A stretch of 64,000 nt of DNA from an uncultured Pseudomonadota bacterium (GCA_963749075.1 CAVVLJ010000020.1:384001-448000); one strand, 5' to 3'. Shown: positions 7,935 through 47,970, numbered from the stretch's first letter. Program-made: numbers and translations. Notes: generated by a model from the sequence alone, not told the origin.

Positions 7935-8030
7935 GCATACGCACGTGCCGCTGGCCCTCTGTGGTTATGCAACGACGGTCGCGTCTCTTTTGGCAACCCC
8001 GGCGCCGCGCCGGATCCGAGAGGGAGCAAT
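7935..8030 (+). promoter_or_regulatory. Putative speF-leader-like cis-regulatory RNA
   Basis: Directly upstream of ornithine decarboxylase; GCACGTGC and GCAACGACGGT blocks plus a CCGG hairpin recall the alphaproteobacterial speF leader; boundaries approximate. Confidence 0.45.
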
Positions 8031-8032
8031 CG

Positions 8033-9397: not shown

Positions 9398-9514
9398 CGC
9401 CGCAAGGCGGGCCGCGGCAGCAGGGCCCGCTGCGCGCGGAAAAGAGCGCGGAGGCCGGTCGGCCGTGTGCGGTGAGTTCCGGCCTCCGCGCCGGGGAGAG
9501 CCCTCTGGACTCTA

Positions 9515-9618
9515 GGTTCCTCGCGTCGCTCCGCTCAGGCGGTTCCTCGCGTCGCTCCGCTCAGGCGGTTCCTCGCGTCGCTCCGCTCAGGCGGTTCCTC
9601 GCGTCGCTCCGCTCGGGC
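9515..9618. repeat. 26-bp tandem repeat x4 (GGTTCCTCGCGTCGCTCCGCTCAGGC)
   Basis: Three identical copies and a fourth with one mismatch, no spacers. Confidence 0.95.
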
Positions 9619-10137
9619 GCGTGCCTGATGCGGGCGGGCATCGCCGCGCGGCTCTCTTGCCGTCAAGGTGTAGGGACCTCTGCGCTCGTCGAGCTTGGCT
9701 AAGAGCTGAGCGGGGCCGGCGATCGCATCGCTCCAGGCGTGGGCGGCGGTAAGCTTCAGGCCGCGGCAGAGCGGGCCCCAGCCCTGGTCGCGCAGCCGTC
9801 CCTCGATCTTGTCGAGGATGTGGCGCGCGAGGACCTGCTCCGCGTCCGCGCCGAGGCTGTGGGGCCCGAGGTAGAGCAGTCCGATGCGGCCGTCGGGCAG
9901 GCGGCCGACGACGCCGAGCGGTGAGAGCGCTTCGCCGACGGCATCGTTGGCCTCGACCAGGCCGCGCGCGGGCAGCTCGACGGCAAAGAGCGTCAGCGGA
10001 ACATGGCTCTGCCGCAGCAGGCGGAGGCTGTAGGCCATGCTGGCCTCGAAGGCGTGGCGGGGCCAGAGGCGGCGCGCCTTCTCCTCCGGCGCGCTGCTGC
10101 CGGCGGCCACGGCCCTGGCCTTGGAGAAAAGCGACAT
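9535..10137 (-). CDS. Hypothetical protein, possibly degenerate GGDEF-like fold
   Basis: 200-aa ORF; PLTLFAVEL and VVGRLPDGRIGLL resemble GGDEF strand pattern without the motif; 3' end runs into the tandem repeat. Confidence 0.5.
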   Translation of the reverse strand: MSLFSKARAVAAGSSAPEEKARRLWPRHAFEASMAYSLRLLRQSHVPLTLFAVELPARGLVEANDAVGEALSPLGVVGRLPDGRIGLLYLGPHSLGADAEQVLARHILDKIEGRLRDQGWGPLCRGLKLTAAHAWSDAIAGPAQLLAKLDERRGPYTLTAREPRGDARPHQARARAERREEPPERSDARNRLSGATRGTA

Positions 10138-10456
10138 GCTGCCGGCTCCGCTGATATCCTTGGGCCGAAATCGTTGCGCTTGACCGGGCGGCTCGCCGCA
10201 TCCGGTCCGTCATATTCAGGTAATTAGTGGAATTGCATGGGTCGGGAGGGCGACAATATTAAGACAATAAGTGGACGACCCCCGCTATCGGTTGTGGGGC
10301 CGGGGCGGGCAGCGAGCCGGCGTGCATGAGCGGGAGCGCACTGATCCGAGCGTGCCTTGCCGCGGCTCTTGCGAACACCCAAATGCGCCCTATGATGGGG
10401 ACGGATTGCGGCGGGCGTCTTTCCCGCCGCTGCGAGAAAGAAAAATGGAGGACGAG

Positions 10457-10813
10457 ATGATCAGCAAGATGATCGGCGCGGCCCTCGTCGCCCTGCTGTT
10501 CACGGGTCCGATGGCATTCGAGGCGTTCGCGCAGTCTTCCGGCGGCACAACGAGCGAGACCACGGCCCCGGCGAAGCCGAAGCCGCCTGTCAAGGCGCAT
10601 GCGGCGGCCAAGGCCAAGCCTAAGGCCATGCCGGAGGAGAGCGCCTCGACCGCGGGGCTCGATTACCCGCCGTGCTCCCGGGCGGTCAAGGACCACTGCA
10701 TCCAGCTTTGGCAGCGCAACCTCGCCAAGGCCTATCCGCAGTGCTCCTCCGTGAAGGGTGCCGACCGCCGGGCTGCCTGCATCGAGGATGCCTACAAGCA
10801 GACCAAGAGCTAG
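10457..10813 (+). CDS. Small secreted protein with four Cys
   Basis: GGAGG SD, signal peptide ending AFA-Q, Lys/Pro/Ala linker, two YP[PQ]CS...CI units. Confidence 0.7.
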   Translation: MISKMIGAALVALLFTGPMAFEAFAQSSGGTTSETTAPAKPKPPVKAHAAAKAKPKAMPEESASTAGLDYPPCSRAVKDHCIQLWQRNLAKAYPQCSSVKGADRRAACIEDAYKQTKS

Positions 10814-10931
10814 GCCGGGAAGGTCCGTCCCTCTGGGGCGCGGTGCGATCGGCCGGCGTCCGACGTTCGCATCGCCCGAGCGCTCGCCGTAGCCTTGGTC
10901 CGGCGGCCACAGCGGCCTCCTTGCTGCGAGG

Positions 10932-11396
10932 ATGATGCGAGAGCTGCGTGCCATAATGCTGCTGACGGCCGTTGCCTTGGCAGGCTGCGTAGCACCGCCT
11001 GCGCAGGAGCGGCGCGCCGCCGATGCGGCGTCGCCGAGCCGGAAAGATGCGGTCGCCGCCATCGCTCAGGCCCCGAGACAGCAGGCCGCCCTGCCCCCTG
11101 TCCCCGTGCCTCCGCCGCGCGAGCGGCAAGCCGGCGTGGTAGCACCCGAGCGCCTGGTCGGGCTCGGCGAAGCGGATGTGCGGGCGCTCATCGGCGAGCC
11201 GGCGAGCGTGCGCGAGGAGGCGCCGGCGCTGGTGTGGCGCTATGCCTCGGCCGGCTGCGGGCTCGAGGTGTTCTTCTACATGGACCTGGCGAGCCAGACC
11301 TTCCGCGCGCTCAGCTACGAGCTCAAGCCCAAGGTGCCGCACGGGCTTGCCGGCAGCGCCTGCCTCGCCTCCTTGCACCCGGCCGCTCATGACTGA
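10932..11396 (+). CDS. Putative lipoprotein
   Basis: Lipobox LAGC; overlaps start of the response regulator. Confidence 0.7.
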   Translation: MMRELRAIMLLTAVALAGCVAPPAQERRAADAASPSRKDAVAAIAQAPRQQAALPPVPVPPPRERQAGVVAPERLVGLGEADVRALIGEPASVREEAPALVWRYASAGCGLEVFFYMDLASQTFRALSYELKPKVPHGLAGSACLASLHPAAHD

Positions 11397-12156
11397 CGCC
11401 GAGGGGCCGGCGCGGGCGCGCGTCGTGCTGGTCGACGACGACGATCTCTTCCGCGAATCCCTCGGCCAGAACCTCGGCGACGCCGGCTTCGAGGTGCGCG
11501 ATTTCCCCTCCGCCGAGGCGGCGCTCGCGCATCTCCTCGACGGCGAGAGCGACGACATCGTGCTGCTCGACTGGAAGATGCCGGGGATGAACGGCATCGA
11601 GCTCTTGCGCCGCATGCGCCAGGCGGGCCTCGAGGCGCCGGTCATCTTCCTCACCGTGCTCAACGACCAGATCTACGAGGAGGCGGCGCTGCAGGGCGGT
11701 GCGGTGGATTTCGTCGAGAAATCGCGCAGCTTCGCGATCCTGCTGCGGCGCATGAACCTGATCCTTGCCGGGCGCAAGGGCGGCGACGCCGCCCAGGCGG
11801 GCGAGGCTGGGCCGCGCCCGGCGGTCTTCCGGCGCGGCGCCCTCGAGCTCAGGCGCGAGACGAGCCGCGTCTTCTGGAACGGCTCGGAAGTGCCGCTCTC
11901 CGTCACCGAGTTCAAGATGGTCGATCTCCTCGCCACGCGCGCCGGCCGCGACGTGCGCTACCGCGATCTCTACGACCTGGTGCACGGCTCCGGCTTCGTC
12001 GCCGGCTACGGCAGCGAGGGCTATCGCTCGAACGTGCGCGCCTTCGTCAAGCGCATCCGCCAGAAGTTCCGCGACGCGGATGCCGCCTTCGACGAGATCG
12101 AGAACTATTCGGGCTTCGGCTACCGCTGGCGCGAGGGAGAGAGCGGGAATTCATAG
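11389..12156 (+). CDS. OmpR-family response regulator (ChvI-like)
   Basis: LVDDD, LLDWKMP, IFLT receiver; winged-helix with VKRIRQKFR and GFGYRW. Confidence 0.9.
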   Translation: MTDAEGPARARVVLVDDDDLFRESLGQNLGDAGFEVRDFPSAEAALAHLLDGESDDIVLLDWKMPGMNGIELLRRMRQAGLEAPVIFLTVLNDQIYEEAALQGGAVDFVEKSRSFAILLRRMNLILAGRKGGDAAQAGEAGPRPAVFRRGALELRRETSRVFWNGSEVPLSVTEFKMVDLLATRAGRDVRYRDLYDLVHGSGFVAGYGSEGYRSNVRAFVKRIRQKFRDADAAFDEIENYSGFGYRWREGESGNS

Positions 12157-12160
12157 GGCA

Positions 12161-13699
12161 ATGGGCGGCCTCGACCGGATCATGCGCTCGTTCGCTGCGA
12201 AGATCCTCGTTCTCGCCGCGATTTTCATCGCCGTGCCCGTCATCCTCTACCAGGAGTTCAAGGCGGCCGACGCGGAGAAGAACCGCCTCTTGTTCGAGAG
12301 CGTCGAGGCGCAGGGGCGGCTCGCGGCCGAGGCGTTGCGCCCCCTCGTCGCCAGCACCGACGCGCAGGCCATGCGCACGATCGCCGAGACGGTGGCGCGG
12401 CTCGGCGATTCCGGCTCCAACATCAAGCTGCTCTATCGCCCCGCGGGCGGCCCCTCGAGCCAGTCGTTCTTCTACGTGGCCTCCTCGCCGGCCGTCTCGG
12501 CTCAGTACCTCGACGAGGAGCGCCAGGATCTGCTGAACGCCGGCGTGCTCGACCGCCTCAAGGATTCCTGCGAGGAGGTGCGCTCGCTCGGCGTGCGCTA
12601 CACCAATCCGGCGGGCGGGCACGAGCTCCTCACCTCGATCACGCCCATCCGGGCCGCGAGCGGCTGCTGGGTGGTCATCACCTCCAACCGCACGGCGGAA
12701 TTCCTCGGCTCCTCGCTCGGCCAGCCCTATTGGCAGACCGATGCCGTGCGGCTCGCCGCGGCGATCTATCTGGCCATGGCGGCCCTCGTCGCGGTGCTCT
12801 TCGTCGAGGCGAGCCTGAGCCTGCGCCGCTTCGGACGGCTGGCGCGCGACTTGCGCACGGGACGCGAGCAGCGCGGCTCCTTCGCCTCGCTCAACCGCAT
12901 TCCCGAGCTCGCGGGCGTGGCCGAGGAGTTCGACCGCCTGGTCGCCACGCTGCGCTCCTCGTCCCAGGCCCTGCGCTTCGCCGCCCAGGAGATGGCGCAC
13001 GCGTTCAAGACGCCGCTCGGCATCATCGCCCAGAGCCTCGAGCCGCTCAGCCGCGGCCTCGCCGGCGAGGACGCGCGCGCTCGCCGCGCCGTCGAGCTCA
13101 TCGGCAAGTCGCTCGAGCGCCTCGACAGCCTGGTCGCCACCTCGCGCCGCCTGGACGAGGCGATCGCCGATTCGATCAACCCGCCGCGCGAGCGCGTGCC
13201 GCTCTCCGATCTCGTGGGCGAGATCGCCGGCGAGTATCGCGAGGCCCACGAGGAAGGCGGGGCGCGCTTTACCGTGGACATCGAGCGCGGCATCGCGGTG
13301 ACCGGCGCGCCGGATCTCCTCGAGATCGTCATGCAGAACCTGCTCGACAACGCGCTCAGCTTCAGCCCGCCGCAAGGCGAGATCATGGTGAGCCTGCGCG
13401 CGCGGGGCGGCGTGGCCGAACTTGCGGTCGCCGACCGCGGCCCGGGGGTGCCGGCCGACAAGATCGAGCGCATCTTCGAGCGCTTCGTCTCGCTGCGCGC
13501 GAGCGAGCCTTTGGCAAGCGGGACCGGAGAGCACGCCGCGGGCGGGCGGCGCGGCGGCGCCCACCTCGGCCTCGGGCTCTGGGTCGTGCGCCGCAACGTC
13601 GAGGCGATGGGCGGCGTCGTCGCCGCCGAGAACCGCGCGCAAGGCGGCTTCCGGGTCATCGTGGCCCTGCCGCTCGCGCGCTCGCGGCGGGCTCCTTGA
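12161..13699 (+). CDS. Membrane sensor histidine kinase
   Basis: Two TM segments, H-box AHAFKTPL, NLLDNA, DRGPG, GLGL. Confidence 0.92.
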   Translation: MGGLDRIMRSFAAKILVLAAIFIAVPVILYQEFKAADAEKNRLLFESVEAQGRLAAEALRPLVASTDAQAMRTIAETVARLGDSGSNIKLLYRPAGGPSSQSFFYVASSPAVSAQYLDEERQDLLNAGVLDRLKDSCEEVRSLGVRYTNPAGGHELLTSITPIRAASGCWVVITSNRTAEFLGSSLGQPYWQTDAVRLAAAIYLAMAALVAVLFVEASLSLRRFGRLARDLRTGREQRGSFASLNRIPELAGVAEEFDRLVATLRSSSQALRFAAQEMAHAFKTPLGIIAQSLEPLSRGLAGEDARARRAVELIGKSLERLDSLVATSRRLDEAIADSINPPRERVPLSDLVGEIAGEYREAHEEGGARFTVDIERGIAVTGAPDLLEIVMQNLLDNALSFSPPQGEIMVSLRARGGVAELAVADRGPGVPADKIERIFERFVSLRASEPLASGTGEHAAGGRRGGAHLGLGLWVVRRNVEAMGGVVAAENRAQGGFRVIVALPLARSRRAP

Positions 13700-13878
13700 G
13701 GACCCGGCCGCGGCATGCCGGGCCAGGCCCGAGCGGGTGCGCGCGGCCCTGTGACGGCGGTCACTGATTTCCCTTGCCGGGTGCAGTAGGTAGAAAGCCG
13801 GATTGCTCGCTTACGGCCGTACCCATGCGGCGCCAGCAAGTGGAGCGATCTGGAACCGTCCATCCTCCTGTGGCACTT

Positions 13879-13911
13879 GGGGCCGGACATCGCGTCCGGC
13901 CCCCTTTTTTT
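13879..13911 (+). terminator. Rho-independent terminator
   Basis: Stem GGGGCCGGAC/GTCCGGCCCC followed by a T run. Confidence 0.8.
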
Positions 13912-13935
13912 GCCCGCCTGCCGCCGCGGCGGCGC

Positions 13936-14523
13936 TCACTTGCACTTGTCGGCGGCGGTGCCGACCCAGGCCCGGCGCGTCCCCTCGCGGAAGCAGCCGG
14001 CGGCCCAGCTGCCCGTATAGCTCTCGCCGCCGGCCTGCCGGTAGGTGCCGCGGCCCTCCGCGCGGCCATCCTTCCAGCCCCCTTCGTAGCGGCTGCCGTC
14101 CGCCCACAGATAGACGCCCTGGCCGCTCCTCAGCCCCTGGCGCCACTCGCCGTCGTAGCGGTCGCCGCTGGCCCAGGCGAAGAAGCCGTGGCCGCTCTCG
14201 GCGTCGTTGCTGAGCTCGCCCCAGTAGCGGTCGCCGTTGGCCCAGCCGTAGGCGCCATGCCCGTCGTAATGGCCGGCCTTGAGGTCTCCTTCGTAGCGGC
14301 CCTCGCGGCGGCCGTCCTCGTACCACTCGAGGACGCCGTGGCCTGCCGCCACGCCGCGGACGCAAGGCCCGCTCCAGCTCAAGGTGAGGGTGGCGCGCGG
14401 ATGCTGGCGCCACACCCGGCAGCCCTTGGCGTCGGCGACCCATCCGCCGCGCTCTGCCGCATGCGGCCCGGCAAGGCTCAGCGCGATCACGGCAGCGGCG
14501 ATGCCCAGTGCGTAGCAGCGCAT
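13936..14523 (-). CDS. Secreted MORN-repeat protein
   Basis: Signal peptide; repeated GxGxYxWAxGDRYxGEW units. Confidence 0.85.
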   Translation of the reverse strand: MRCYALGIAAAVIALSLAGPHAAERGGWVADAKGCRVWRQHPRATLTLSWSGPCVRGVAAGHGVLEWYEDGRREGRYEGDLKAGHYDGHGAYGWANGDRYWGELSNDAESGHGFFAWASGDRYDGEWRQGLRSGQGVYLWADGSRYEGGWKDGRAEGRGTYRQAGGESYTGSWAAGCFREGTRRAWVGTAADKCK

Positions 14524-14777: not shown

Positions 14778-14887
14778 AAACTATACTCCGCGGCCAAAGT
14801 CGTATATAAAGTTGCGTCCACCGTGCCAAGCCGGGTCCGGCGGAGGCGTTGGCGTGGGCGGCGAGACGCAAGCGGCGGTGAGGGGGA

Positions 14888-16366
14888 TGCTGGAACGGGC
14901 GGCAATGCGCAAGCCGCGTCGTGGCTTGGCGGGGGGGCGGACGCGTGTCCGGTGCGCGGCCGTGCTCCGGCGGGGTGCCTCGGGCGGCCGCCGCATGCTC
15001 GTTGCCGGCGCGTTGGCGCTCGCAGCACTGGGCCTCGGCACCGGCGCGGCGGCGGCGGCGCAGACGGGTTCGGCTCCTCAGAACGTCGCCCCAGACGCCG
15101 CCTCAGACGAAGGAAGGTCTGCAGGCGCAGTACAACGACCTCTTCCAGAAGCTGCTCAAGGACCCCACCAACGTCGATCTCACCTTCCAGTTCGCCGACG
15201 TCGCCACCAAGATCGGCAACTACGAGTCGGCGATCTCGGCGCTCGAGCGCCTGCTGCTCTATGATCCCGATTTCCCGGAGGTGAAGCTCGAGCTGGCCGA
15301 GCTCTATCTCCACATCGGCTCCTACGACGTGGCGCGGGTCTATCTCAAGCAGGCCCAGCAGGAACCGAACATGCCGCTGAAGGTCGTCGCGCGCGAGAAG
15401 GCGATCGAGGACGAGCTCAACCGCCAGTCGGCAACTTCGAGGATCACCGCCAGCGTGCTCGCGGGAGCGCGCTATCAGACCAACGCCAATGCGGGTCCGG
15501 CCGGCGCCAACATCATCGTCGGCGGCGTGCCGTCGACGCTGAGCTCGATCTTCGCGCGCAAGTCCGATTGGGACGTGTTCTTCGACGGCAACATGGAGCA
15601 CAGCTACGATCTCAGCCCGGCGAGGAACGCGAAACTCGAGACCAACGTCCTCGTCTATTACTCGAAGCAGATCCGGCTGGGGCAATTCGATTCGGCGTCC
15701 ATCGAGGTGAACTCGGGGCCGCGCTTCGATATGGGCGACGGCGAGGAAGTCTATTTCCGCACGCGGCCCTATATCCTCGCCAACGAGGTGCTGCTCGGCA
15801 ACGAGCACCTCTTCTGGACGGTCGGCGGCGGCATCGAGGTGAGCCGCCCGATCACCAAGGAGCTCAAGCTCAGCGGCAACTACGAGTTCCGCTCGGAGCA
15901 TTTCTCCTACAACGACTCGGTCGGGGGCGCCCCCGGCCTGAGCGGGGGCGTGCACGCCTTCACCCTCGGCTGGAGCTACAACGTCCTCGAGAACGGCAGC
16001 CTCTCCTTCGATACGGACTACGCGATCGACAATGCGCGGGTGGACTTCAACGCCTCGCATTCGCTCGAGTTCCGCCTCAGCTACTCGCAGAGCGTGTCGC
16101 TGCCGTGGCATTTCCCGCGCGGGCCGCTCGTGCTGACGCCCGAGGTCGACCGCATCTATGCCCACTACGACCAGCCCGACCCCGGACTGGACCCGACGCG
16201 CTCGCAGGTCACCCAGGAATGGCGCTACGGCCTCAGCACCCAGCTCGGCCTGACCGAGAGCCTGGCCGCCAGCGTGCGCGTGGTCCGCGAGTTGGTGGAT
16301 GCCAACATCCCGATCAGCAAATACAACAACTCGCAGGTGATCTTCGGCCTGCTTTGGTCCTACTGA
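14888..16366 (+). CDS. TPR plus outer-membrane beta-barrel protein (Slam-like architecture), apparent frameshift near 15082
   Basis: Signal peptide (LVAGALALAALGLGTGAAAAAQ) in one frame; TPR (AISALERLLLYDPDFPEVKLELAELY) and amphipathic strands ending FGLLWSY in the next; start uncertain. Confidence 0.75.
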   Translation, partial: CWNGRQCASRVVAWRGGGRVSGARPCSGGVPRAAAACSLPARWRSQHWASAPARRRRRRRVRLLRTSPQTPPQTKEGLQAQYNDLFQKLLKDPTNVDLTFQFADVATKIGNYESAISALERLLLYDPDFPEVKLELAELYLHIGSYDVARVYLKQAQQEPNMPLKVVAREKAIEDELNRQSATSRITASVLAGARYQTNANAGPAGANIIVGGVPSTLSSIFARKSDWDVFFDGNMEHSYDLSPARNAKLETNVLVYYSKQIRLGQFDSASIEVNSGPRFDMGDGEEVYFRTRPYILANEVLLGNEHLFWTVGGGIEVSRPITKELKLSGNYEFRSEHFSYNDSVGGAPGLSGGVHAFTLGWSYNVLENGSLSFDTDYAIDNARVDFNASHSLEFRLSYSQSVSLPWHFPRGPLVLTPEVDRIYAHYDQPDPGLDPTRSQVTQEWRYGLSTQLGLTESLAASVRVVRELVDANIPISKYNNSQVIFGLLWSY

Positions 16367-16446
16367 GCGGCGGGCGAGGCCGCCCGCGTCGCGTCTCCGC
16401 CCCGCTCGGCCGCGGCGGGTTTGACGCGCTCCACCCGGATCGAGCG

Positions 16447-17964
16447 ATGGACACGGGCCCCGTCATCCATATCGAGCCGAAGGGCCTTCTTGCCAACCGC
16501 ATGATTCAATATCTGGCGGCGAAAAGACTGCAGGCGCACTGTCGCGGCAGCCGCCTATCCAACGTCAGTCTCCCCGAATGGGACCTCGTGATGCCGCCGC
16601 TCAGTAGCGGCGGAGAGGAAAGGGAGCTGGTGCTGCGCCACGAGGCGCGGGTGCCATTCCGCACCCTGGTCGAGCTGGTGAATGCCGGCGCATTCCAGCG
16701 CGTCGTGATCGCCGAAAACGCGCAACGGATGGACTATCTCGGCGAGCCCGCGGCTTGCGCGCGCGTCTTCCCGCCGAAGGCCACCCCCGCTCCGGTGGCG
16801 GACGACGAGCTCCTCATCCACATCCGCTCCGGCGACGCGGCCGGAGGCATCCAGCACTACCCGCTCGTCCCGGCGGAATTCTATCGCACGTTGAGCGAGC
16901 TGAGCGGGCTCAGGCCCTGCTTCATGGGGCAGCTCGAGAACAACGCGCACTGCGACCGGCTGCGCGAGGGCTTTCCGCACGCGCGGTTCATCGAGACGCA
17001 GGACGTCCTCAGCGACTTCGAGACGATCCGCTCGGCGCGGCACATTGCGATCGCCGTGAGCACCTTCTCCTGGCTCGCCGCCTGGCTGTCGTCGGCGGAG
17101 CGCATTTTCCTCCCCATACTCGGCTTCTTCAATCCGATGCATTTCCCGGGCTGGGGCGACATCGACCTTCTACCGACCGCGGATGCGCGCTACCGCTTCT
17201 TCCTCTTCCCGCTGCATTACGGCCTTTCGCTCGAGGAGGCTCTGCCCTCGCATGCGGAAATCGCCGCCCGTTGCAGGGAGATCTCGCCGCGCCAGGTCGA
17301 TGTCCTGCGCCAGCGCGCGCCCTACGTCCGCGTCGCTCCGTCCGACATCGACTTCAATCCGGTGTGGTACGCGCATGCCTATATCGACGCGGCGATGGAG
17401 ATCAGCGAGGGCTGGTTCGCCGGCCCGCTCGAGCACTATCTCGAGATCGGCTGCCGCCGGGGCTGCCGGCCGATGCCGCCCGGCTTTTCGCAGCGCCGCG
17501 ACCCGGTCGGCCGCGCAGCCGACGTGGCCGCCGGCAGGCCCGCGCAGCAGAGCTCGCTCAGCCCCTGGTCGGTCGGGCGCACCACGGAGGAGGACGCCGG
17601 ACGCGCCTTGCTCGGAGCGCCGCAGGAGCCCTATGCATTTCACACCAACTGGGAGAATTCTCCCTGGTGGCGCGTGGATCTCGAACGGCCCCAGGCAATC
17701 GCGGAGGTCCTCATTGACAATCGTGCGGACGATGTCCTCAATGCTGCGCGCGCCGGTCCGCTGCGCGTCGAGACGTCGATCGATATGGAGACGTGGGCCG
17801 AGCTCTTCACGACACCTCCCGGCTTGATGGGCGGCAGCGGCGGGAGAGCGGTGATTTGGACGGCACCCGCGCCGCGTGTCGCGCGTTTCGTCCGCATCGT
17901 CGTTCCGCGCTGGACCTGCCTCCATCTGCGGCAGGTGCAGATTTTCGCCAGCGCGGCAGGGTGA
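16447..17964 (+). CDS. GT11-like (alpha-1,2-fucosyltransferase-like) protein with C-terminal F5/8-type C / F-type lectin domain
   Basis: GLLANRMIQY, IHIRSGD, STFSWLAAWLS; C-terminal GRPAQQSS, FHTNWENSPWWRVDL, NRAD. Confidence 0.7.
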   Translation: MDTGPVIHIEPKGLLANRMIQYLAAKRLQAHCRGSRLSNVSLPEWDLVMPPLSSGGEERELVLRHEARVPFRTLVELVNAGAFQRVVIAENAQRMDYLGEPAACARVFPPKATPAPVADDELLIHIRSGDAAGGIQHYPLVPAEFYRTLSELSGLRPCFMGQLENNAHCDRLREGFPHARFIETQDVLSDFETIRSARHIAIAVSTFSWLAAWLSSAERIFLPILGFFNPMHFPGWGDIDLLPTADARYRFFLFPLHYGLSLEEALPSHAEIAARCREISPRQVDVLRQRAPYVRVAPSDIDFNPVWYAHAYIDAAMEISEGWFAGPLEHYLEIGCRRGCRPMPPGFSQRRDPVGRAADVAAGRPAQQSSLSPWSVGRTTEEDAGRALLGAPQEPYAFHTNWENSPWWRVDLERPQAIAEVLIDNRADDVLNAARAGPLRVETSIDMETWAELFTTPPGLMGGSGGRAVIWTAPAPRVARFVRIVVPRWTCLHLRQVQIFASAAG

Positions 17965-18111
17965 GCCGCGCGGGCGGCCGCCGGTCATGCGGCACCGGAG
18001 GCGCCGGCGCGTCCTTCGCTCGCGCCGGATCGGCCGACGCTGTAAAATCCTTTGCTTCGAGCGGCGGAGTCCGATCGCCGGCTCCGGGTGGCAAGTCAAC
18101 GAGAGCGAGCG

Positions 18112-18282
18112 ATGGAGCCGCAGGATACCGGTGATTCCGACAGCGAAGACGCCGTCGAGCCCGAATGGGAGCGGCAGAAGCGGCGCCTGCGCCGCCGCGA
18201 GCTCATCATCACCATCGTCGGTGCGATCTTTTTTCTTATGTCGCTGTTGATCCCATTCGTCACCGGCATGCATCGTCCGTGA
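18112..18282 (+). CDS. Small single-TM protein (56 aa)
   Basis: Acidic N-terminus, RRLRRR, hydrophobic helix; degenerate second copy at 19227-19313. Confidence 0.55.
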   Translation: MEPQDTGDSDSEDAVEPEWERQKRRLRRRELIITIVGAIFFLMSLLIPFVTGMHRP

Positions 18283-18342
18283 CCCGCGCGGGCGGACGGG
18301 CGCCCGCCGCCCAGCCGCGCGGCGATCTCTGACGAGCCGGCG

Positions 18343-19140
18343 TCACGTGCCGCGCGCTAACGCCGACGAGACCGGGTCGAGCCCGAATAGCACGTGGTCG
18401 ACGGAGTTGGGAAACAGGGTCTCCAAGAGAAAGCTTGGCAAGAGCTTCTGCACGAAGCATCGCGACGTATTCGTGGAATGCAGAATATGCAGGCATATGA
18501 AACTCATATCCGCCACGCCGTACATCCCGAACCGCTCCATGGCGCCCTCGGCGAACACGGCGTCCTCGCGCCAATCCAGATCCGGACACCGCACCTCGTT
18601 CCAGACCGACTTCCTGTACATGAACGAGAACCCGTAGCCGAAAACGGATCCACGCAGGTGCACATTGTTGCTGTCGTCGAAATTGACGAGCTGCACGGGC
18701 TCGTTGCCGAGGACATAATGGGGCCCGACGTGCTGGCACAAGTCGCAATGCGCAAAGATGCCATGGACCTTGCTGAAGATGAAGAAGCTGTCCAGCTTCA
18801 CGAAGCTCGCCTTCTCCTCGAACATGGCGCGGAGCATGTCCAACAGGTAGTGCTTTGCGTAAAAGTCGTCGTCGTCGAAATTTGCGATGATCTCTCCACG
18901 CGCCTGCTCGATGAGGATGTTGCGCTTCATGCCGATGGTGAGGGGTTGCGAGGAATGCCTGTAGATGACGCGCGGGTCGGCAAGTGCCGTCATGAAATCA
19001 CTGGGCGACGGACTGTCGTCCAGGACCAGCCACTCGAAATCGCTCATATGCTGAGCTTTGACGCATTCGTATATGAGCGGCAGGAAATGCTGCCGATTGC
19101 GAGTCGGCGTATTGATGCTGACTAAGGGATTTCCCGCCAT
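18343..19140 (-). CDS. Glycosyltransferase family 2
   Basis: VSINTPTRNR, EWLVLDDS, IGMKRN, NFDDDDFY, WRED; visibly lower GC than neighbours. Confidence 0.88.
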   Translation of the reverse strand: MAGNPLVSINTPTRNRQHFLPLIYECVKAQHMSDFEWLVLDDSPSPSDFMTALADPRVIYRHSSQPLTIGMKRNILIEQARGEIIANFDDDDFYAKHYLLDMLRAMFEEKASFVKLDSFFIFSKVHGIFAHCDLCQHVGPHYVLGNEPVQLVNFDDSNNVHLRGSVFGYGFSFMYRKSVWNEVRCPDLDWREDAVFAEGAMERFGMYGVADMSFICLHILHSTNTSRCFVQKLLPSFLLETLFPNSVDHVLFGLDPVSSALARGT

Positions 19141-19348
19141 GCGCGCGACTCAGGGCTCGCTTTAATCGACATTCTCCAGACGACCAAGAAAGGTAACATT
19201 CCGCTGGGATGCCCGGAAGCGAAAAGGCGCCGCCGCGAGCTCATCATCACTATCGTCGGCGCGATCCTGCCGCTCATGTCGCTGGCAATCCCCGTCATCG
19301 GCGGCGCGCACCGCTGGCGACCGGCAGAGGCAGACGGGGAGCGTCCGC

Positions 19349-20533
19349 TCACGCGCCGAGCGCCCGCTGCGCGTGCTGCAGGTTGCCCAAGACGCGCTCC
19401 CGCTCGCCGGCCGGCAGCTGGGTGCCGTCGAGCAGCATTTGGCAGACGCGCTCCGATTCGCGGTGTTCGCCTATCCAGTAGGTCGCGACCGCATATTCGT
19501 CCCAGTTGAGCCAGTCGTAGCATTCGCCCTCGATGAACAGATAGTCGCTGGCCGGCCGCGGGATTTCGGTGGCGCGCTTGGAGAAGAGATGCGCCAGCGC
19601 GTACCGGTTGCGTTCCCGGTAGAAGCGCGCCAGGCGGACGAGCGGCTCGGCCCGCTGCATGCGGTATTGGTAGGTCTGCAGATAGCACTCGACCACCGTC
19701 GCCTCGGGAAGCCCCAGGCTCTCGCTCAGGCGGGCGATCTGGTAGAGCGAATACCACACCTCTTCGACCCAGCCACCGAGCTCGGCGCGGCGCCGGTAAG
19801 TCTCGAGGGCGTCTTCCGGCCGCCCCATGTCCCTGTAGGTTTGCGCAAGATAGAAGATGTTGCGCGGCTTGAGCAGCCGCGCTTCGCCGAGAGGCTCCTT
19901 GAGATCGGCGCGCTCCGGCTCGTAGGCGGCCTGCCGCTCGAGCTCCTCGAGCGCCTCGAGGTCGCGCGTGAGGAGGGCGATGTCGCGGCTGTATTTCTCC
20001 GGCCTGCTGCTGCCGTCGGCATAGTCCAGGAACTCGATGGCATCGGTCAGCGGGGGGTCGCGGTGGATGTCGGGCGACACGCTGGCGCAATATTCGTGGG
20101 TCGAGCCCCAGTAGCGCCAGCGCCGGCCCCCGGTCAGGCGCGCGTTGACCAGGCGGACGTTGCCGTAGAAAAATCCCCATTGGTTGCGCTGGATGACGAG
20201 ATAGACGTCGGCCGCGAGCTTCTCCTTCCAGGCGGGGTCGCGCACCGTCAAGGTCATGTCCGCGTCGCAAAACAAGAGATAGTCCGCCTTGCCCTCCGCG
20301 AGACGGATCGCCTCGGTGCGATTATGGGCGAAATCGCGCCAGGGCCGCGCGTGGAGCTCGCCCGGAATCCCCCTCAAGTGGTCGAGAACGAGCTGTTGGG
20401 TGCCGTCGCCCGACCCCGTATCGACGATCACCCAGTAGTCGATGAACGGCCGCAGCGAGTCGAGGCAGCGCCCGATGACCCGGGACTCGTTCTTGACGAT
20501 CATGTTCAGGCAGACGCTGCGCTGCTGCGGCAA
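19349..20533 (-). CDS. GT2 glycosyltransferase with C-terminal TPR repeats
   Basis: CLNMIVKNE, IVDTGSGDGT, DFAHNR, CDAD, HE; FYLAQTYRD TPR region; TTG start after AAGGAG. Confidence 0.88.
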   Translation of the reverse strand: MPQQRSVCLNMIVKNESRVIGRCLDSLRPFIDYWVIVDTGSGDGTQQLVLDHLRGIPGELHARPWRDFAHNRTEAIRLAEGKADYLLFCDADMTLTVRDPAWKEKLAADVYLVIQRNQWGFFYGNVRLVNARLTGGRRWRYWGSTHEYCASVSPDIHRDPPLTDAIEFLDYADGSSRPEKYSRDIALLTRDLEALEELERQAAYEPERADLKEPLGEARLLKPRNIFYLAQTYRDMGRPEDALETYRRRAELGGWVEEVWYSLYQIARLSESLGLPEATVVECYLQTYQYRMQRAEPLVRLARFYRERNRYALAHLFSKRATEIPRPASDYLFIEGECYDWLNWDEYAVATYWIGEHRESERVCQMLLDGTQLPAGERERVLGNLQHAQRALGA

Positions 20534-20867
20534 TGGGGCTCTCCTTCGGCGGCCGCCGGGGCGAGGGTGCGGCACTCGGCTCGCCCGGACTGGCCCCGGT
20601 CCGGGCTCCCGGGAGCGCGGCGGAAGTCTAGCAGAAGCGGGCATGGCGGCGGCAATGGCGCGCGCGCGGCATGGCAGACCGCCCAACGCCCTGCCGCGCG
20701 CACTTCCGCCAGGATTCCTTCTTGCGCAGCCGCCGCAACTCCCTTAAATTCGCTTAAAATTGATAACATCGACGGCAAGCCCGCATTGCTTGCCAGCCAC
20801 AGCGAGATGGCCCGCGCCAGAGAGATTGCGCGACGGTTCAAGTGGTTAGGGCGTTCGCTAGGGGGCC

Positions 20868-20883
20868 TGGCACAACGGTTGCA
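20868..20883 (+). promoter_or_regulatory. Sigma-54 (-24/-12) promoter
   Basis: TGGCACAACGGTTGCA with exact GG-N10-GC spacing, about 175 nt upstream of the FecR/repeat gene. Confidence 0.75.
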
Positions 20884-21058
20884 TCTTAAGGCGGGCGATG
20901 AATTGCCGCACTGAATGGGCACCCGGAGCGCAGGCAACTCGGAGGACGGCGTCGCCGCTTCCGGGGAAGCCCGTGGGCTGACGCCCGATCTGTCGGGCGG
21001 CGGCCAGGACGAAGCGTGAAGCGCGCGGGGATCAGCCGCGCCGGCGGGGGAGCAGGGG

Positions 21059-24000
21059 ATGCGCGGGGTCACGTCTCGAAACGCGCTTCGCGAGAGGCTG
21101 TTAGCCGAAGCCGCCCGCTCGGTCTTCGTGGCGCTGCTCGGCCTGGGCGGCGGCGCCGGGTCCGTTGCGGCGGCCCAAGAGACGGTCGGCGTCACCTCCG
21201 CGGTCAATCCGGAGGCGGTGGGTCAGCCGCCGAATGAGCCGGAGAGCACGCTCATCGTCGGCCACGACATCATGCGCAATGAGCGCATCGCCACGAAGGG
21301 CCTGGGTCAGACGCAGATCCTCTTCGTGGACCAGTCGTCGCTGACGGTTGCCCCCAACTCGGAAGTGGTGATCGACGAGTTCGTCTACGACCCGCGCAAG
21401 CAGGCGGGCAACATGGTCGCGAATTTGACCACCGGCCTGCTCCGCTACGTGGGCGGCAAGGTGAGCAAGCAGAAGGACGTCACCTTCATGACGCCTTCGG
21501 CCGCGATCACCGTGCGCGGCGGCATCCTCTTCGTCAAGGTCGGCGCCAACGACCAGGTCACGGCGACCTTCGGCTTCGGCGAGCATATGTGCGTGCTCGC
21601 GGACGGACACAAGGTCTGCACCAACGTGCCCGGCACCTCGGTCGCCGTGCCGGGATCGGGCCAGCCTCCGTCAGCGCCCTTCGCGACCTCGCCTGCCGCC
21701 CTCCAGAGCATGATCGGCGAACTGGAAGGCGACGATCCGAACGCCCTCGCGGCCGTCATCGGCTCGATAGCACCACGAGCCGGGGGCGACCAGGGAAACC
21801 CGGGCCTAGGCGATGCCGGCCCGCCTTCGGGCGGCGGCAATGGGCTGGGCTCTTATTCGAACAGCGGGCCACAGACCTTCATTCCCAACCCGACGCCGAC
21901 GCCCACTCCGACGCCGGCGCCAACTCCTGCTCCGACACCTACGCCGACACCCACGCCGGCGCCGACACCCGCACCCACGCCCACCCCGACGCCCACGCCT
22001 ACTCCTACTCCTACGCCGACGCCGACGCCGACGCCGACACCCACGCCAACGCCAACGCCAACGCCGACCCCGACGCCCACGCCAACGCCAACGCCAACGC
22101 CGTCAAAGCACCACCATCACCACCACCATCACCATTACCAGTTCGAGTACCACCATCATTATTGGTACGACCACCATTGGTACGGCCATAGCGGCTCGTC
22201 GGGCCACAGCGGCTCCTCGGGCTACACCGGTTCCTCTGGACACAGCGGCAGCTCCGGCTTCTCCGGCTCGTCCGGGCACAGCGGGAGCTCCGGCGACAAG
22301 GGCTCGTCCGGGCATAGCGGGAGCTCCGGTGACAAGGGCTCGTCCGGCCATAGCGGCAGCTCCGGCTTCAGCGGCTCGTCCGGGCACAGCGGGAGTTCCG
22401 GCGACAAGGGCTCGTCCGGCCATAGCGGCAGCTCCGGCTTCAGCGGCTCGTCCGGGCACAGCGGGAGTTCCGGCGACAAGGGCTCGTCCGGCCACAGCGG
22501 CAGCTCCGGCTTCAGCGGCTCGTCCGGGCACAGCGGCTACTCCGGCTCCTCGGGCCATAGCGGCAGCTCCGGCTTCTCCGGCTCGTCCGGGCACAGCGGG
22601 AGCTCCGGCGACAAGGGCTCGTCCGGCCATAGCGGCAGCTCCGGCTTCTCCGGCTCGTCCGGGCACAGCGGGAGCTCCGGCGACAAGGGCTCGTCCGGCC
22701 ACAGCGGCAGCTCCGGCTTCAGCGGCTCGTCCGGCCACAGCGGGAGCTCCGGCGACAAGGGCTCGTCTGGCCACAGCGGCAGCTCCGGCTTCAGCGGCTC
22801 GTCCGGCGGCCACAGCGGCAGCTCCGGCTCGAGCGGCTCGTCCGGCGGCCACAGCGGCAGCTCTGGCTCGAGCGGCTCGTCCGGCGGCCACAGCGGCAGC
22901 TCCGGCTCGAGCGGCTCGTCCGGCGGCCACAGCGGCAGCTCCGGCTCGAGCGGCTCGTCTGGCGGCCACAGCGGCAGCTCCGGCTCGAGCGGCTCGTCCG
23001 GCGGCCACAGCGGCAGCTCCGGCTCGAGCGGCTCGTCCGGCGGCCACAGCGGCAGCTCTGGCTCGAGCGGCTCGTCCGGCGGCCACAGCGGCAGCTCCGG
23101 CTCGAGCGGCTCGTCCGGCGGCCACAGCGGCAGCTCCGGCTCGAGCGGCTCGTCTGGCGGCCATAGCGGCAGCTCCGGCTCTAGCGGCTCCTCGGGCTCC
23201 AGCGGCTCGTCCGGCTCCAGCGGCAGCTCCGGCTCGAGCGGCTCGTCTGGCGGCCATAGCGGCAGCTCCGGCTCTAGCGGCTCCTCGGGCTCCAGCGGCT
23301 CGTCCGGCTCCAGCGGCAGCTCCGGCTCGAGCGGCTCGTCTGGCGGCCATAGCGGCAGCTCCGGCTCTAGCGGCTCCTCGGGCTCTAGCGGCTCGTCCGG
23401 CTCCAGCGGCAGCTCCGGCTCGAGCGGCTCGTCTGGCGGCCATAGCGGCAGCTCCGGCTCGAGCGGCTCGTCTGGCGGCCATAGCGGCAGCTCCGGCTCG
23501 AGCGGTGCCTCGGGCTCGAGCGGCTCGTCTGGCGGCCACAGCGGCAGCTCTGGCTCGAGCGGCTCGTCCGGCTCCAGCGGCAGCTCTGGCTCGAGCGGCG
23601 CCTCGGGCTCGAGCGGCTCGTCCGGCTCGAGCGGCAGCTCCGGCTCGAGCGGTGCCTCGGGCTCGAGCGGCTCGTCCGGCGGCCATAGCGGCAGCTCCGG
23701 CTCGAGCGGTGCCTCGGGCTCGAGCGGCTCGTCCGGCGGCCATAGCGGCAGCTCCGGCTCGAGCGGCTCCTCGGGTCACAGCGGCAGCTCGGGCAACGCC
23801 AACAACTTGGGCGCGAGCGGAGACTCCGGCTCGTCGGGCCATAGCGGCAGCTCCGGCTTCAGCGGCTCGTCGGGCCATAGCGGCAGCTCCGGCTTCAGCG
23901 GCTCGTCGGGCCATAGCGGCAGCTCCGGCTCCAGCGGCTCGTCCGGTCATAGCGGCTCGTCGGGCCATAGCGGCTCGTCCGGGCACAGCGGGAGCTCCGG

Positions 24001-24418
24001 CTCCAAGGGCTCGTCGGGCCACAGCGGCTCCTCCGGGGACCACGGCTCGAGCGGCTCGTCAAGCCACAAGGACGGTAAGCACGACTACGACCGTTACACT
24101 TTCCACCGCGGGCACGAGCGCGATCTGCACGACGGCAGCGAGCACTCCAGCGGCTGGTCCGATCATAAGGACGCCAAGCACGACTACGACAAATACACGT
24201 TCCACCGCGGCAAGGACCACGAACGGCACGACAGCGGCGATCACGCCAGCAGCTGGTACCGCGATAAATTCCAGAACTATCTCGACCGCTTCGGGAAGGA
24301 GATGGACCGCTGGAAGAGAGCTGCCGAGGACCACCGCAGATGGCGGACGTGGCGCGAGCACTTCGGCATCTCGAAGGGCAAGCACCACGAGCACGATAAG
24401 GACAAGGAAGGCCACTGA
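21059..24418 (+). CDS. Exported FecR-domain protein with Pro-Thr linker, His tract, long Gly-X-Y Ser-rich repeat and His-rich tail
   Basis: Signal peptide, FecR-like [27 protein letters not shown]...[10 protein letters not shown]; 1119-aa frame stays open through all repeats. Confidence 0.85.
21890..22102 (+). repeat. Coding (Pro-Thr)n repeat
   Basis: CCNACN hexamer array with variable third positions. Confidence 0.9.
22183..24060 (+). repeat. Coding Gly-X-Y repeat array (GSS/GHS/GFS/GDK/GAS)
   Basis: 9-bp base periodicity with higher-order blocks including a 39-bp [13 protein letters not shown] unit. Confidence 0.95.
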
Positions 24419-24546
24419 GGCCGCCCCGCCTTCCTGACCTGCTTGCCGAGTGCCGAGTGTTGCCGCGCCGGCAAGCGGGCTCGGTTCATTGAGCTCGCAG
24501 CGATTGCGTGGCTCGCAAGGGGCCGCACTTCGCCCTGCGCCGGCGG

Positions 24547-26781
24547 CTATTTCGTGAGCGCGACGAACACCCCGTCCCAATCGGCGGGCGGCGGCTCCGC
24601 GCGGAAGCGCGCGATGCGGCCCTCGTAGAGCGTGTAGAGCGCCTGGAGCGTCTCGGGTGCCTGCGAGCTGCAGGCCTCGAGGTACCGGCACGCCTCGGCC
24701 CAGCGCCGCTCCCGATAGGCGGCCAGCATGGCGTCGTGGTCGGCCTTGAGCGCCGCGAAGGCGGAGTTCGCCGCGATCCCGGCGTCGCCGACGAGGGCGA
24801 AGATGTGCACCGGCACGGCCTTGCCCTTGACCCGCACCAGGTCGAGCTCGATGAAGGCGAGCCCCTCAGCCTCCTCGGCCGTCTTCTCGCCCACCACGAT
24901 ATCGACGCCGTAGCTCGCCGACTGCCCCTCGAGCCGCGAGGCCAGGTTCACGTCGTCGCCGAGCACCGAATAGTCGAAGCGCTGGGCCGAGCCCAGGTTG
25001 CCGACGCAGCAGGTGCCCGTATTGAGGCCGATGCCGATGCGCACCTGGTGGAAGGGGCGGTCCTCGGCCGCGGCTTCCTCGCGCCAGCTCTCATTGAGGC
25101 GCACGAGCTCGCTGCGCATGGCGAGCGCTGCGCGGCAGGCATGCTCGGAATGGCTCGCATCGTCGAGCGGCGCGTTCCAGAACGCCATGATGGCGTCGCC
25201 CATGTATTTGTCGACGGTGCCGCCAGCGGCAAGGATGGCGTCCGTCATGGGCGTCAAGAAGCGGTTGATGAAGCTGGTGAGGCCGTGGGCGTCGAGGCGT
25301 TCGGCGATCCCGGTGAAGCCGCGGATGTCGCTGAACATGAGCGTCATCTCGCGCATCTCCCCGCCGAGCACGAGCCGCTCGGGATGGCGCGAGAGCTGTT
25401 CGACGATGGCCGGCGCCAGATAGCGCCCGAAGGCGTGGCGCACGCGGCGGCGCTCGTTCTCCGTGCGGAAGAACAGCACGGCCGAGGAGGAGAGGTAGAC
25501 GAGGAGCACCACGATCGAGGGGAACGCCGGGTCGAACAAGAGATTGTGCGCGGCATAGGCGTACCATGACGCGCCGAACGCCGAAGCCATGGCGCCAAGG
25601 CCGAGGAAGGCCGTCCAGCGGGCACCCACCTTGGGCAGCAGCAAGAGGAGGGCGATCCCGATCACCAGCATGTAGACGAGCTCGGCCCCGAGCGCCCAAT
25701 TGGGCCGCTCGAGCGAGTCGCCGAGCAGCATCTGCTCGGTGAGCTGGGCATGGATCTCGACGCCCGGCGCGTCGGGGTCGAGCGGCGTCGGGCGGAATTC
25801 CTTGAGGCCCTGGGCGGTGGTGCCGACATAGACGATGTTGCCCTTGATCATGTCCGGGTCCACGCTGCCGTCGAGCACCTTCCAGGCGGGTACGTAGCGC
25901 TCGGGGACGGGTGGCGTGAAGTGGAGCCAGACGGTGCCGCGCGAATCGGTCGGCACCACGAGCCGGCCGACCTTGATCGAGTTCACGCCCACGTGCTCGC
26001 CGAAGCTCCTGACGCCGTTGGCACCCGTCGACTTGATGATGTAGGTGTGCGCCCCCTGCGCCACGCGCAGGGTCTCGAGCGCCACCGCCGGATAGAGCCA
26101 ATAATCGTCGAGGCCGCTCACGAGGGGCACCCGGCGGGTGATCCCGTCGATCCCGAGGATGTCGTTGAAGGTGCCGTTGCCCGCGGCGGCCGCCTCGATG
26201 CTGCCGATATTGACGACGGCGCCGCGGAACTGCGGGACCCAGGGCCGCGGATCGTCGCCGGCGATGGCGAAGCTGGCCTTTTCCCGCGGCAGGAGCGCGC
26301 CGTGCCGGTGGGTGAGCACGAAGCCGGTCACCACGCGGCTGCGCCGGATCGCGTCGCCGAGCACGTCGTCGTGGTCGGGGAGCGCCTCGATGCGCTGGAC
26401 CAGGGGGTCGTTGGGATCGAGTCCCTTGAGGTCCCCGAGGGTGTACGCCGGCGAGGTGCGGTCCGGCTCGGCAAAGACGATGTCGAAAGCGGTCACCGCG
26501 GCGCCGAGCGCGGTCAGCCGGTCGACCAGCTTGGCCATGAGCGTGCGCGGCCACGGCCATTGACCGAGGCGCGTCAGGCTGTCGTCGTCGATGTCGACGA
26601 TGCGCACCGGCACCGGCTCGTAGTCGCGCGGCTTGAGGCGCATGTAATCGTCGAAGACGAAGAGCCGCAGCTGCTCGAGCGGCACCGGCTCGGCGGCCCA
26701 GCCGGCGAGCGCTGCAAGAAGGATGACGAGGGGCACCAGAAGGTGCAGCTTGCTCTTGAGAAGGCGCTTCGCCTGTTGCAT
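24547..26781 (-). CDS. CHASE2-domain class III adenylate/guanylate cyclase
   Basis: IVDIDD..LGQWPWPR (CHASE2), TM helices, FSDIRGFT, DKYMGDAIMAFW, GDDVNLASRLEG. Confidence 0.93.
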   Translation of the reverse strand: MQQAKRLLKSKLHLLVPLVILLAALAGWAAEPVPLEQLRLFVFDDYMRLKPRDYEPVPVRIVDIDDDSLTRLGQWPWPRTLMAKLVDRLTALGAAVTAFDIVFAEPDRTSPAYTLGDLKGLDPNDPLVQRIEALPDHDDVLGDAIRRSRVVTGFVLTHRHGALLPREKASFAIAGDDPRPWVPQFRGAVVNIGSIEAAAAGNGTFNDILGIDGITRRVPLVSGLDDYWLYPAVALETLRVAQGAHTYIIKSTGANGVRSFGEHVGVNSIKVGRLVVPTDSRGTVWLHFTPPVPERYVPAWKVLDGSVDPDMIKGNIVYVGTTAQGLKEFRPTPLDPDAPGVEIHAQLTEQMLLGDSLERPNWALGAELVYMLVIGIALLLLLPKVGARWTAFLGLGAMASAFGASWYAYAAHNLLFDPAFPSIVVLLVYLSSSAVLFFRTENERRRVRHAFGRYLAPAIVEQLSRHPERLVLGGEMREMTLMFSDIRGFTGIAERLDAHGLTSFINRFLTPMTDAILAAGGTVDKYMGDAIMAFWNAPLDDASHSEHACRAALAMRSELVRLNESWREEAAAEDRPFHQVRIGIGLNTGTCCVGNLGSAQRFDYSVLGDDVNLASRLEGQSASYGVDIVVGEKTAEEAEGLAFIELDLVRVKGKAVPVHIFALVGDAGIAANSAFAALKADHDAMLAAYRERRWAEACRYLEACSSQAPETLQALYTLYEGRIARFRAEPPPADWDGVFVALTK

Positions 26782-46897: not shown

Positions 46898-47120
46898 GGC
46901 ACCCGCGGTAGTGCCTCACTTTGAAATTCTGGTGCGATTTCAGTTACGTGGGCCGGCCCCTGAGGGAGGGTTTGACTCGCGCTTTCCTGAGGAATCTGAT
47001 ACAGAAAGGACGCGAGAAATGAGTAAGGATTCTACACGTTTCAATAGGCCCGCGAGCGGGAAAAATGCTGGCAGATGCGACCGGCGTAGCCGTGATAGCC
47101 GCTCTGGCAAGGTGGGCGCA

Positions 47121-47393
47121 ATGATAGCCAATCGGACGAAGCAGGAAGAAGTAGATCGAAATTTTGCTTTCTTCGAGAGCGAGCTGCCAAAACTTTTGCC
47201 TCAGCAGGCCGGAAAATTCGCACTTATACGCGACCTGCAAATTGTTGGCTTCTACGATACCATCCATGATGCCTATACCTCCGGTACAAAGATGTATTCG
47301 GATAATCTATTTTCAATACAGCAGGTGACCAAACAGGCTGTGGATTTGGGAGTCTTTTCTCATGCCATGCATTTGGGGACAGCACAGCGGTAA
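47121..47393 (+). CDS. Small DUF5678-like protein
   Basis: NFAFF..LPKLL..AGKFALIRD..IVGFYDT..DA pattern; AT-rich; overlaps protease gene. Confidence 0.6.
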   Translation: MIANRTKQEEVDRNFAFFESELPKLLPQQAGKFALIRDLQIVGFYDTIHDAYTSGTKMYSDNLFSIQQVTKQAVDLGVFSHAMHLGTAQR

Positions 47394-47847: not shown

Positions 47848-47970
47848 AAAGATGGGTGTCGTTAGCCTCCTAAGCGGCGGGAGCACACTTGCGCGCCCCC
47901 CGCTTCGTTGACGGCCGAGCGCGCCGCGTGCCAGAGTGGCGGCCCGTAACCGCAACGACGCCGGGCCGCC

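Follow-up and report, generated by a model that had tools for sequence, protein, structure and literature searches.

A glycosyltransferase cassette between a Slam-like barrel gene and the gene for a FecR-headed, collagen-like protein in an uncultured Pseudomonadota bacterium

We analysed a stretch of 64,000 nucleotides from an uncultured Pseudomonadota bacterium (GCA_963749075.1 CAVVLJ010000020.1:384001-448000; the whole stretch is called the window), in which six neighbouring genes encode a Slam-like outer-membrane barrel, three glycosyltransferases (GTs), an exported collagen-like protein and a nucleotide cyclase. The window belongs to contig C20 of a 5.49-Mb genome; related loci are from Alphaproteobacteria, and the sequencing runs that contain the window sequence are soil metagenomes, with no RNA run among those listed. 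The six genes had been named in an earlier note on this DNA, and open reading frames (ORFs) and Pfam matches place them at about the coordinates given there, with the same domains. A TPR/barrel gene (14887..16366, plus strand) and an exported FecR-domain gene (21059..24418, plus strand) bracket the GT genes, and the gene for a CHASE2 class III nucleotide cyclase (24547..26781, minus strand; Pfam CHASE2 and Guanylate_cyc) is convergent with the FecR gene, both as the earlier note had it. The bracketed genes encode a GT11-like, fucosyltransferase-fold enzyme joined to an F5/8 type C, carbohydrate-binding-like domain (16447..17964, plus strand; Pfam and fold search), a cytoplasmic GT2 enzyme whose gene has a low GC content of 0.57 (18343..19140, minus strand; Pfam GT2), and a cytoplasmic GT2-TPR protein, a candidate protein O-glycosyltransferase (19349..20533, minus strand; Pfam GT2 and TPR). 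Two features absent from the earlier note flank the GT2 gene: an ORF for a 56-residue single-pass membrane protein of no known family (18112..18282, plus strand), which comparison with relatives finds kept in such cassettes, and a degenerate duplicate of the 3' part of that ORF (19227..19369, plus strand; 143 nt, 71%). Since the GT2 and GT2-TPR genes lie on the strand opposite to the barrel, GT11-like and FecR genes, the locus is not a single operon; scans for promoters and terminators gave chance-level results. No cyclic-nucleotide-binding gene was found in the window, and no type 1 secretion genes among the ORFs of positions 8000-34000.

In the window sequence the signal peptide of the barrel protein (ATG at 14887) and its TPR/barrel portion are in different frames. 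Base 15082 is missing from the covering contigs of both runs (X1 and X2, from one study), and we therefore take the gene to be intact, encoding 492 residues, and the window to carry an assembly error at this base; a pseudogene was rejected on this ground. Behind its signal peptide the protein has TPR helices (Pfam TPR), and its structure model (predicted local distance difference test score, pLDDT, 84.8) has six helices and 14 long strands. The best fold matches, CymA (Z 21.4, root-mean-square deviation (rmsd) 3.7, 272 aligned) and OmpG (Z 20.3, rmsd 3.0, 235 aligned), are both 14-stranded, and no Slam structure was among the matches of the fold search. N-terminal TPRs with a 14-stranded outer-membrane barrel are the hallmark of type 11 (Slam/DUF560) pores, and the modelled protein has this architecture. 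Among its homologues PF04575 (SlipAM) is matched by 8 of 60 (E<=0.01, best 3.8e-6) and TPR_Slam by 13 of 60.

The FecR gene encodes a protein of 1119 residues that reads, in order, as a signal peptide, a FecR-like head (21176..21730, by profile comparison), a Pro-Thr stalk of about 35 units (21890..22102, by sequence reading), a His run, a Gly-X-Ser repeat region (22184..24061, by triplet count) and a His/Asp/Arg-rich C-terminal tail (24062..24415), all on the plus strand. The N-terminal 280 residues match FecR in Pfam over the cut-off (E 3.7e-6), and the product matches Collagen (PF01391) with 190 bits. The repeat region holds 184 Gly-X-Y triplets in runs of at least five, with Ser at Y in 162 and Pro in none. 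Only 70 triplets (residues 376-585) are unbroken, the pattern being interrupted afterwards; this is nonetheless the long continuous Gly-X-Y run by which bacterial collagen-like proteins are recognised, and all runs of at least eight triplets in the genome lie within this gene. The exact repeat length rests on this assembly, with short-read contigs covering both ends and parts of the repeat and none spanning it. Hundreds of Ser/Thr acceptor sites had been ascribed to the protein, and the count is 353 Ser and 53 Thr. The N-terminal signal is hydrophobic, and neither a lipobox nor a transmembrane anchor was found beyond it. The tail (His 15%, Asp 15%) contains a 99-nt duplication and matches no family. 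It was rejected as a conserved domain, a profile built from L004, L005, P0257 and P0258 scoring it no higher than 300 shuffles; the likeness is compositional only.

In the head family of the window protein an invariant Arg-Gly stands in place of the Gly-Thr motif of FecR autocleavage. [quoted passage not shown] The LapA retention family (retention_LapA, NF033682) is matched weakly by 58 of 67 heads (E<=0.1, best E 6e-7). It is the first ~70 residues of the head that show this weak likeness, which suggests that the protein may be tethered by a plug. At the other end of the protein, 42 family members exceed 450 residues in length, and 21 of these finish in an fHbp/TbpB-like barrel (E<=0.05; two over the cut-off), and an eight-stranded C-terminal barrel is the feature that unifies type 11 cargo (10.1101/2024.09.26.615229; PMC8406197). 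Among the 120 listed of 150 protein matches, none of the long FecR relatives carried a collagen run, nine triplets being the longest. A second copy of the head, 70-72% identical and with a longer Pro-Thr stalk and a short tail, is encoded elsewhere in the genome (L001:9711-11261; G000:C16, about 1263700-1265260), where nothing in the 20 kb fetched matches the barrel, the GTs or the cyclase; the barrel and cassette of the window may serve this protein as well.

Eighty loci were fetched with the FecR head as query, 73 of which had room for a barrel. A barrel homologue was seen in 68 of the 80, always upstream of the FecR gene and no more than 1.7 kb away, and so the 4.7-kb gap in the window represents an insertion. 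From this pairing, and from the cargo barrels of the long relatives, we infer that barrel and FecR protein work like a type 11 secretin and its cargo; as the repeats have replaced the cargo barrel in the window protein, we do not class that protein as a type 11 member. The fetched DNA contained a CHASE2 cyclase at 22 of the 80 loci, and in the window cyclase, FecR-domain and TPR/barrel genes all stand together. Such a grouping is already known: Campylobacterota have clusters in which genes for CHASE2 cyclases, FecR-domain proteins and TPR proteins occur together, with a phosphodiesterase as a further member (PMC9239204), SMc02177 of Sinorhizobium meliloti has a FecR domain (PMC5498481), and NsrA acts upstream of CHASE2 cyclases in that species (PMC13001267, PMC7529298). 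Surface roles have been proposed for FecR-domain proteins of Leptospira (PMC13719327). The window thus has CHASE2 cyclase, FecR-domain and TPR/barrel proteins in common with NsrA-CyaD1/D2/K and with the Campylobacterota clusters, for which, unlike the window, the available text describes neither GTs nor a collagen-like tail. The comparison with NsrA rests on these gene types occurring together and not on barrel homology; a search of a plasmid collection with the barrel matched two records, neither from S. meliloti. Elsewhere in the genome, a stand-alone FecR-domain gene lies directly upstream of a CHASE2 cyclase gene, with no match to the Slam-like barrel (L003:7064-9957). Another locus (L002:9200-12318) has a short FecR-like gene, an OmpA-like lipoprotein gene and a convergent gene for a CHASE2 protein, the C-terminal part of which reads, in translation, as a PP2C-type phosphatase.

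The GT genes recur as a cassette in this position. Of 79 metagenome GT2-TPR loci, the four nearest to the window (66-67%) all lie beside barrel and/or FecR orthologues and represent two species (L116/L117 and L118/L119; nucleotide identity 99.6% within pairs, ~76% between), so that the neighbourhood analysis that the earlier note had called for does find GTs with FecR proteins elsewhere, in two further species whose repeat tails lie beyond the contig ends. The order in L119 is barrel, GT2-TPR, GalE-like epimerase, GT11-like enzyme (70%), small ORF, GT2-GT2/TPR-GT2 fusion, FecR protein with (Pro-Thr)n stalk and His-rich segment, contig end; L116 and L117 instead encode a PIG-L-like deacetylase and a further probable GT. 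Across the window and the two further species the position between barrel and FecR genes is therefore constant, while content and order vary. The 56-residue membrane protein has counterparts in these cassettes (48% in L116 and L117, 58% in L119), a database search giving two matches, and the duplicate of its gene is likely to be a scar of cassette rearrangement. The GT2 enzyme corresponds to the first domain of the GT2-GT2/TPR-GT2 fusion (64% over 245 residues), and is thus fused to a GT2-TPR in L116 and L119. Against L119 the three GTs have crude ratios of nonsynonymous to synonymous change of 0.24-0.26, which points to purifying selection. None of the three has a signal peptide, and any glycosylation by them would as such be cytoplasmic.

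The GT2-TPR protein has a GT2 domain with a DxD motif followed by TPRs, the architecture of SgtA, GmaR and SunS. Its best PDB matches are GmaR (E 2e-6), 7msk and SunS, and it scores 26.6 bits against the SunS family TIGR04195, well below the cut-off of 350. It is present in single copy, beside the one gene of the genome that has a long Gly-X-Y stretch, and its family is uncommon, being found in 3 of 401 genomes of the class and 2 of 11 of the order, the source genome counted in both. The pairing with collagens extends to relatives. Among more distant metagenome loci, collagen-like runs lie near 12 of 75 GT2-TPR genes (0.60 Mb) versus none of 80 FecR genes (1.33 Mb), a comparison between sets of different origin, in which related loci do not count as independent. 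A looser Gly-X-Y count had given 7 of the 80 control loci, from antisense Pro-Thr or poly-Gly runs; a composition filter reduced these to none and kept all 12. Such runs also occur near 6 of 17 viral GT2-TPR loci, three of them near-copies, and a collagen gene lies directly beside the GT2-TPR gene in 4 of 8 bacterial loci examined, in a same-genus genome (G003), Cupriavidus metallidurans CH34, Methylobacterium aquaticum and Mesorhizobium ciceri (the plasmid collection gave 12 GT2-TPR matches, four of which were examined). Y is mostly Thr in these four collagens (for example 450 of 482 and 103 of 108), versus Ser in the window protein. In a tree the solo GT2-TPRs form a supported clade; the G003 modules, which fall in a different clade and stand beside their own collagen, were rejected as orthologues of the cassette enzyme. 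They lie in an island (G003:C55:17792-37914; L090, L091) in which three genes with four GT2-TPR modules accompany a type 1 secretion pair and a 1758-residue protein with 475 unbroken Gly-Ala-Thr-type triplets, which makes the island a candidate system for secreting a glycosylated collagen by the type 1 route. M. ciceri (L223) has a comparable arrangement around a DUF4347 collagen. In P0241 a close GT2-TPR relative is fused behind DUF707-like and YdjC deacetylase domains, putatively another variant of the cassette.

The third enzyme resembles fucosyltransferases in its fold. GT11 (PF01531) is matched by 38 of the 61 members of its alignment (E<=0.05, best 1.3e-5), the window protein not being one of them, and a search of PDB sequences with the GT11 profile gave no match. 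The model (pLDDT 94.5) matches FUT1 (Z 11.1, rmsd 3.8, 224 aligned), POFUT2 (Z 10.7), NodZ (Z 10.4, rmsd 3.3, 208 aligned) and POFUT1 (Z 10.1). An HxRxGD-like motif, the mark of the fucosyltransferase-type GT-B fold, is present at residue 125. GDP-fucose is a candidate donor, and the genome has a gmd gene that scores over its cut-off.

We prefer the reading that the cassette glycosylates the repeat protein, that the barrel holds the resulting fibre and that the cyclase may read its state, and give this reading as a whole a probability of roughly 0.5. In such a system the GT2-TPR enzyme would prime in the cytoplasm, attaching the initial sugar to Y-position Ser in the manner of SgtA on BclA3, which by this analogy is probable. 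The GT2 and GT11-like enzymes would then lengthen the glycan and cap it, the sugar probably being fucose or a different 6-deoxy sugar, a step with somewhat better than even odds. The glycosylated protein would cross the inner membrane by Sec. Its tail, unfolded, would pass outward through the barrel, with the folded head remaining behind in the periplasm as a plug, as in LapA and MpIBP, a proposal that we make tentatively and whose odds fall a little short of even. More tentatively still, the head would contact CHASE2 and alter cyclic AMP (cAMP) output. Priming is the best supported of these steps, and display and cAMP coupling are weak. Glycosylation is likely on the strength of the pairing of GT2-TPR with collagens, the fusion of GT2 to GT2-TPR in relatives and the fucosyltransferase fold of the third enzyme. 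Surface display is less sure, as the cargo barrel is missing, although the head weakly resembles the LapA/MpIBP plug. The interpretation offered earlier is thus partly supported: comparison backs glycosylation by the GTs, to which the recurrence of the cassette in two species also speaks; the display and cAMP parts of it are kept here as proposals.

Several observations weigh against this reading. The window barrel itself had no match to PF04575, in searches of which one had a control that matched nothing; the head scores 14 bits against a cut-off of 50 for retention_LapA; and the protein ends in low-complexity and His/Asp-rich sequence of no family, with no C-terminal cargo barrel. Pro-free Gly-Ser-Ser is a poor former of triple helix, so that the fibre may be a disordered or polyglycine-II chain. 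Two of the GT genes are antisense to the rest, no collagen run of at least eight triplets was found at the other four of the eight bacterial GT2-TPR loci, and collagen and cassette have been seen together once, the tails in L116 and L119 running off the contig ends. The cyclase accompanies only the 22 loci mentioned, in varying position. None of the 80 FecR loci matched any of the three window GTs, which served as the queries. The genomes of L004 and L005, whose FecR proteins have Ser/Thr-Pro stalks, gave no GT2-TPR (one of five genomes matched), and the GT11-like gene was not found in five same-genus genomes by a search that had no positive control. In G003 the syntenic locus has no cassette, and the tail of its FecR orthologue has 479 Ser and Thr and no Gly-X-Y; this orthologue nests in the tree among cassette-bearing lineages, which suggests that the cassette may have been lost there. 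Being missing from most family members and from one same-genus orthologue, the cassette is a lineage-specific add-on to an older signalling/display module and not a core part of it.

Of the other explanations, the one that survives best is that the protein is glycosylated by the cassette yet stays periplasmic, docked on the TPRs of the barrel as the relay of a split, NsrA-like path from outer membrane to CHASE2, its sugars keeping a long spacer soluble and protease-resistant. This would account for the missing cargo barrel and for the many homologues of only 250-300 residues that keep a barrel (some short ones have a cyclase and no barrel), and it accords with the Campylobacterota clusters of cyclase, FecR and TPR genes (PMC9239204), the FecR domain of SMc02177 (PMC5498481) and the action of NsrA ahead of the CHASE2 cyclases (PMC13001267). 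Against it stand the C-terminal type 11 cargo barrels of half of the long relatives, and a highly variable tail of 900 residues with a swappable sugar cassette would better fit an exposed structure; we therefore consider the relay rather unlikely. Less likely again is a passenger cassette, carried at a site prone to insertion, whose enzymes act on lipopolysaccharide, exopolysaccharide or a protein other than the Ser-rich one. O-antigen is a frequent target of GT11 enzymes, GT2 matches number 33 across the genome, most relatives do without the cassette, and opposite strands, shuffled order, a low-GC GT2 gene and a duplication scar are what insertion might leave. In contrast, genes for a polymerase, flippase or ligase are missing from all three cassettes seen, the GT2-TPR family goes together with collagens, and the position next to the barrel-FecR pair has been kept over ~30% protein divergence. 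Least likely is export through the barrel followed by release as a matrix polymer or, through the His/Asp-rich segments, a metal scavenger, for although type 11 cargo includes hemophores and metal-binding proteins (10.1101/2024.09.26.615229), the tail is rich in His and Asp and no anchor follows the signal peptide, the head resembles retention plugs and the cargo barrel is lacking.

The preferred reading, glycosylation with anchoring by the barrel, borrows from several described systems. SgtA of Clostridioides difficile is a GT with TPRs whose gene adjoins bclA3, and it can use Ser in addition to Thr as acceptor (PMC7157674). Both loci pair a cytoplasmic GT2 and TPR enzyme with an adjoining collagen-like protein that has a hydroxyl residue at Y, a likeness of architecture and gene position as described rather than of aligned sequence; the window differs in its Gram-negative envelope, its Pro-free Gly-X-Ser, the FecR-like head of the substrate and the candidate extending enzymes in the locus. 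With type 11 secretin-cargo pairs it has in common a TPR and 14-stranded barrel protein adjoining its partner gene, and long relatives of the partner of which half end as type 11 cargo does. It differs from them in that the Pfam likeness of the barrel family is distant, the window's partner has no cargo barrel, and literature searches found no GT or cyclase link for type 11. The folded N-terminal domain (a weak sequence match), flexible linker and long repeat region recall LapA and MpIBP, which use type 1 secretion and a TolC-like pore in place of the Sec-type signal and monomeric barrel seen here. HMW1A-HMW1B-HMW1C of Haemophilus influenzae likewise combines an exported protein, a dedicated outer-membrane barrel and a cytoplasmic GT in one locus, and HMW1 is glycosylated in the cytoplasm before Sec export (PMC3983070). 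Its TpsB barrel and GT41 N-glycosyltransferase contrast with the Slam-like barrel, the GT2/GT11-type O-glycosylation candidates and the cyclase of the window, which we predict to be an HMW1ABC-like layout on a Slam-like pore. At its fullest, a Slam-like pore might anchor a plug-headed, collagen-like glycoprotein by the LapA principle, with a swappable cassette writing a strain-specific fucosylated coat and the plug reporting fibre engagement to the CHASE2 cyclase. Such a system would act as a sugar-coated antenna on the cell surface, uniting type 11 export with O-glycosylation of collagen and cAMP signalling; in all its parts together this is doubtful.

No paper joining the module to GTs was found in the main texts of the open-access literature, in line with the earlier note, which had held the combination to be undescribed. 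Were the preferred reading true, type 11-like pores would gain a new class of client, a tethered and glycosylated repeat protein with no cargo barrel, and collagen O-glycosylation of the SgtA type would extend to Gram-negative envelopes with candidate extending enzymes, which for the BclA3 glycan were never found according to the available text of PMC7157674. It would also offer a handle on what CHASE2 cyclases sense. Members of the enzyme family also neighbour collagen genes in strains that are in culture (C. metallidurans CH34, M. aquaticum and M. ciceri), so a test of the core claim need not wait for the source organism to be cultured.

Some minor observations concern the surroundings and relatives of the locus. 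In L004:10007-12256 the gene between barrel and cyclase encodes a FecR-headed relative whose Ser-Pro(n) stalk is extensin-like and which has a His/Asp tail, in a genome in which no GT2-TPR was found. A small lipoprotein gene precedes the barrel gene in two relatives and is absent from the ORF list of the window. Upstream of the barrel, positions 7961-14523 hold an ornithine-decarboxylase-like gene, genes for a response regulator and a histidine kinase, and a MORN-like repeat gene, an arrangement that is syntenic in G003; a MORN-like gene lies upstream of the barrel in L118 too. Further downstream, at 47001-48000, GC content falls to 0.53 against ~0.69 around it.

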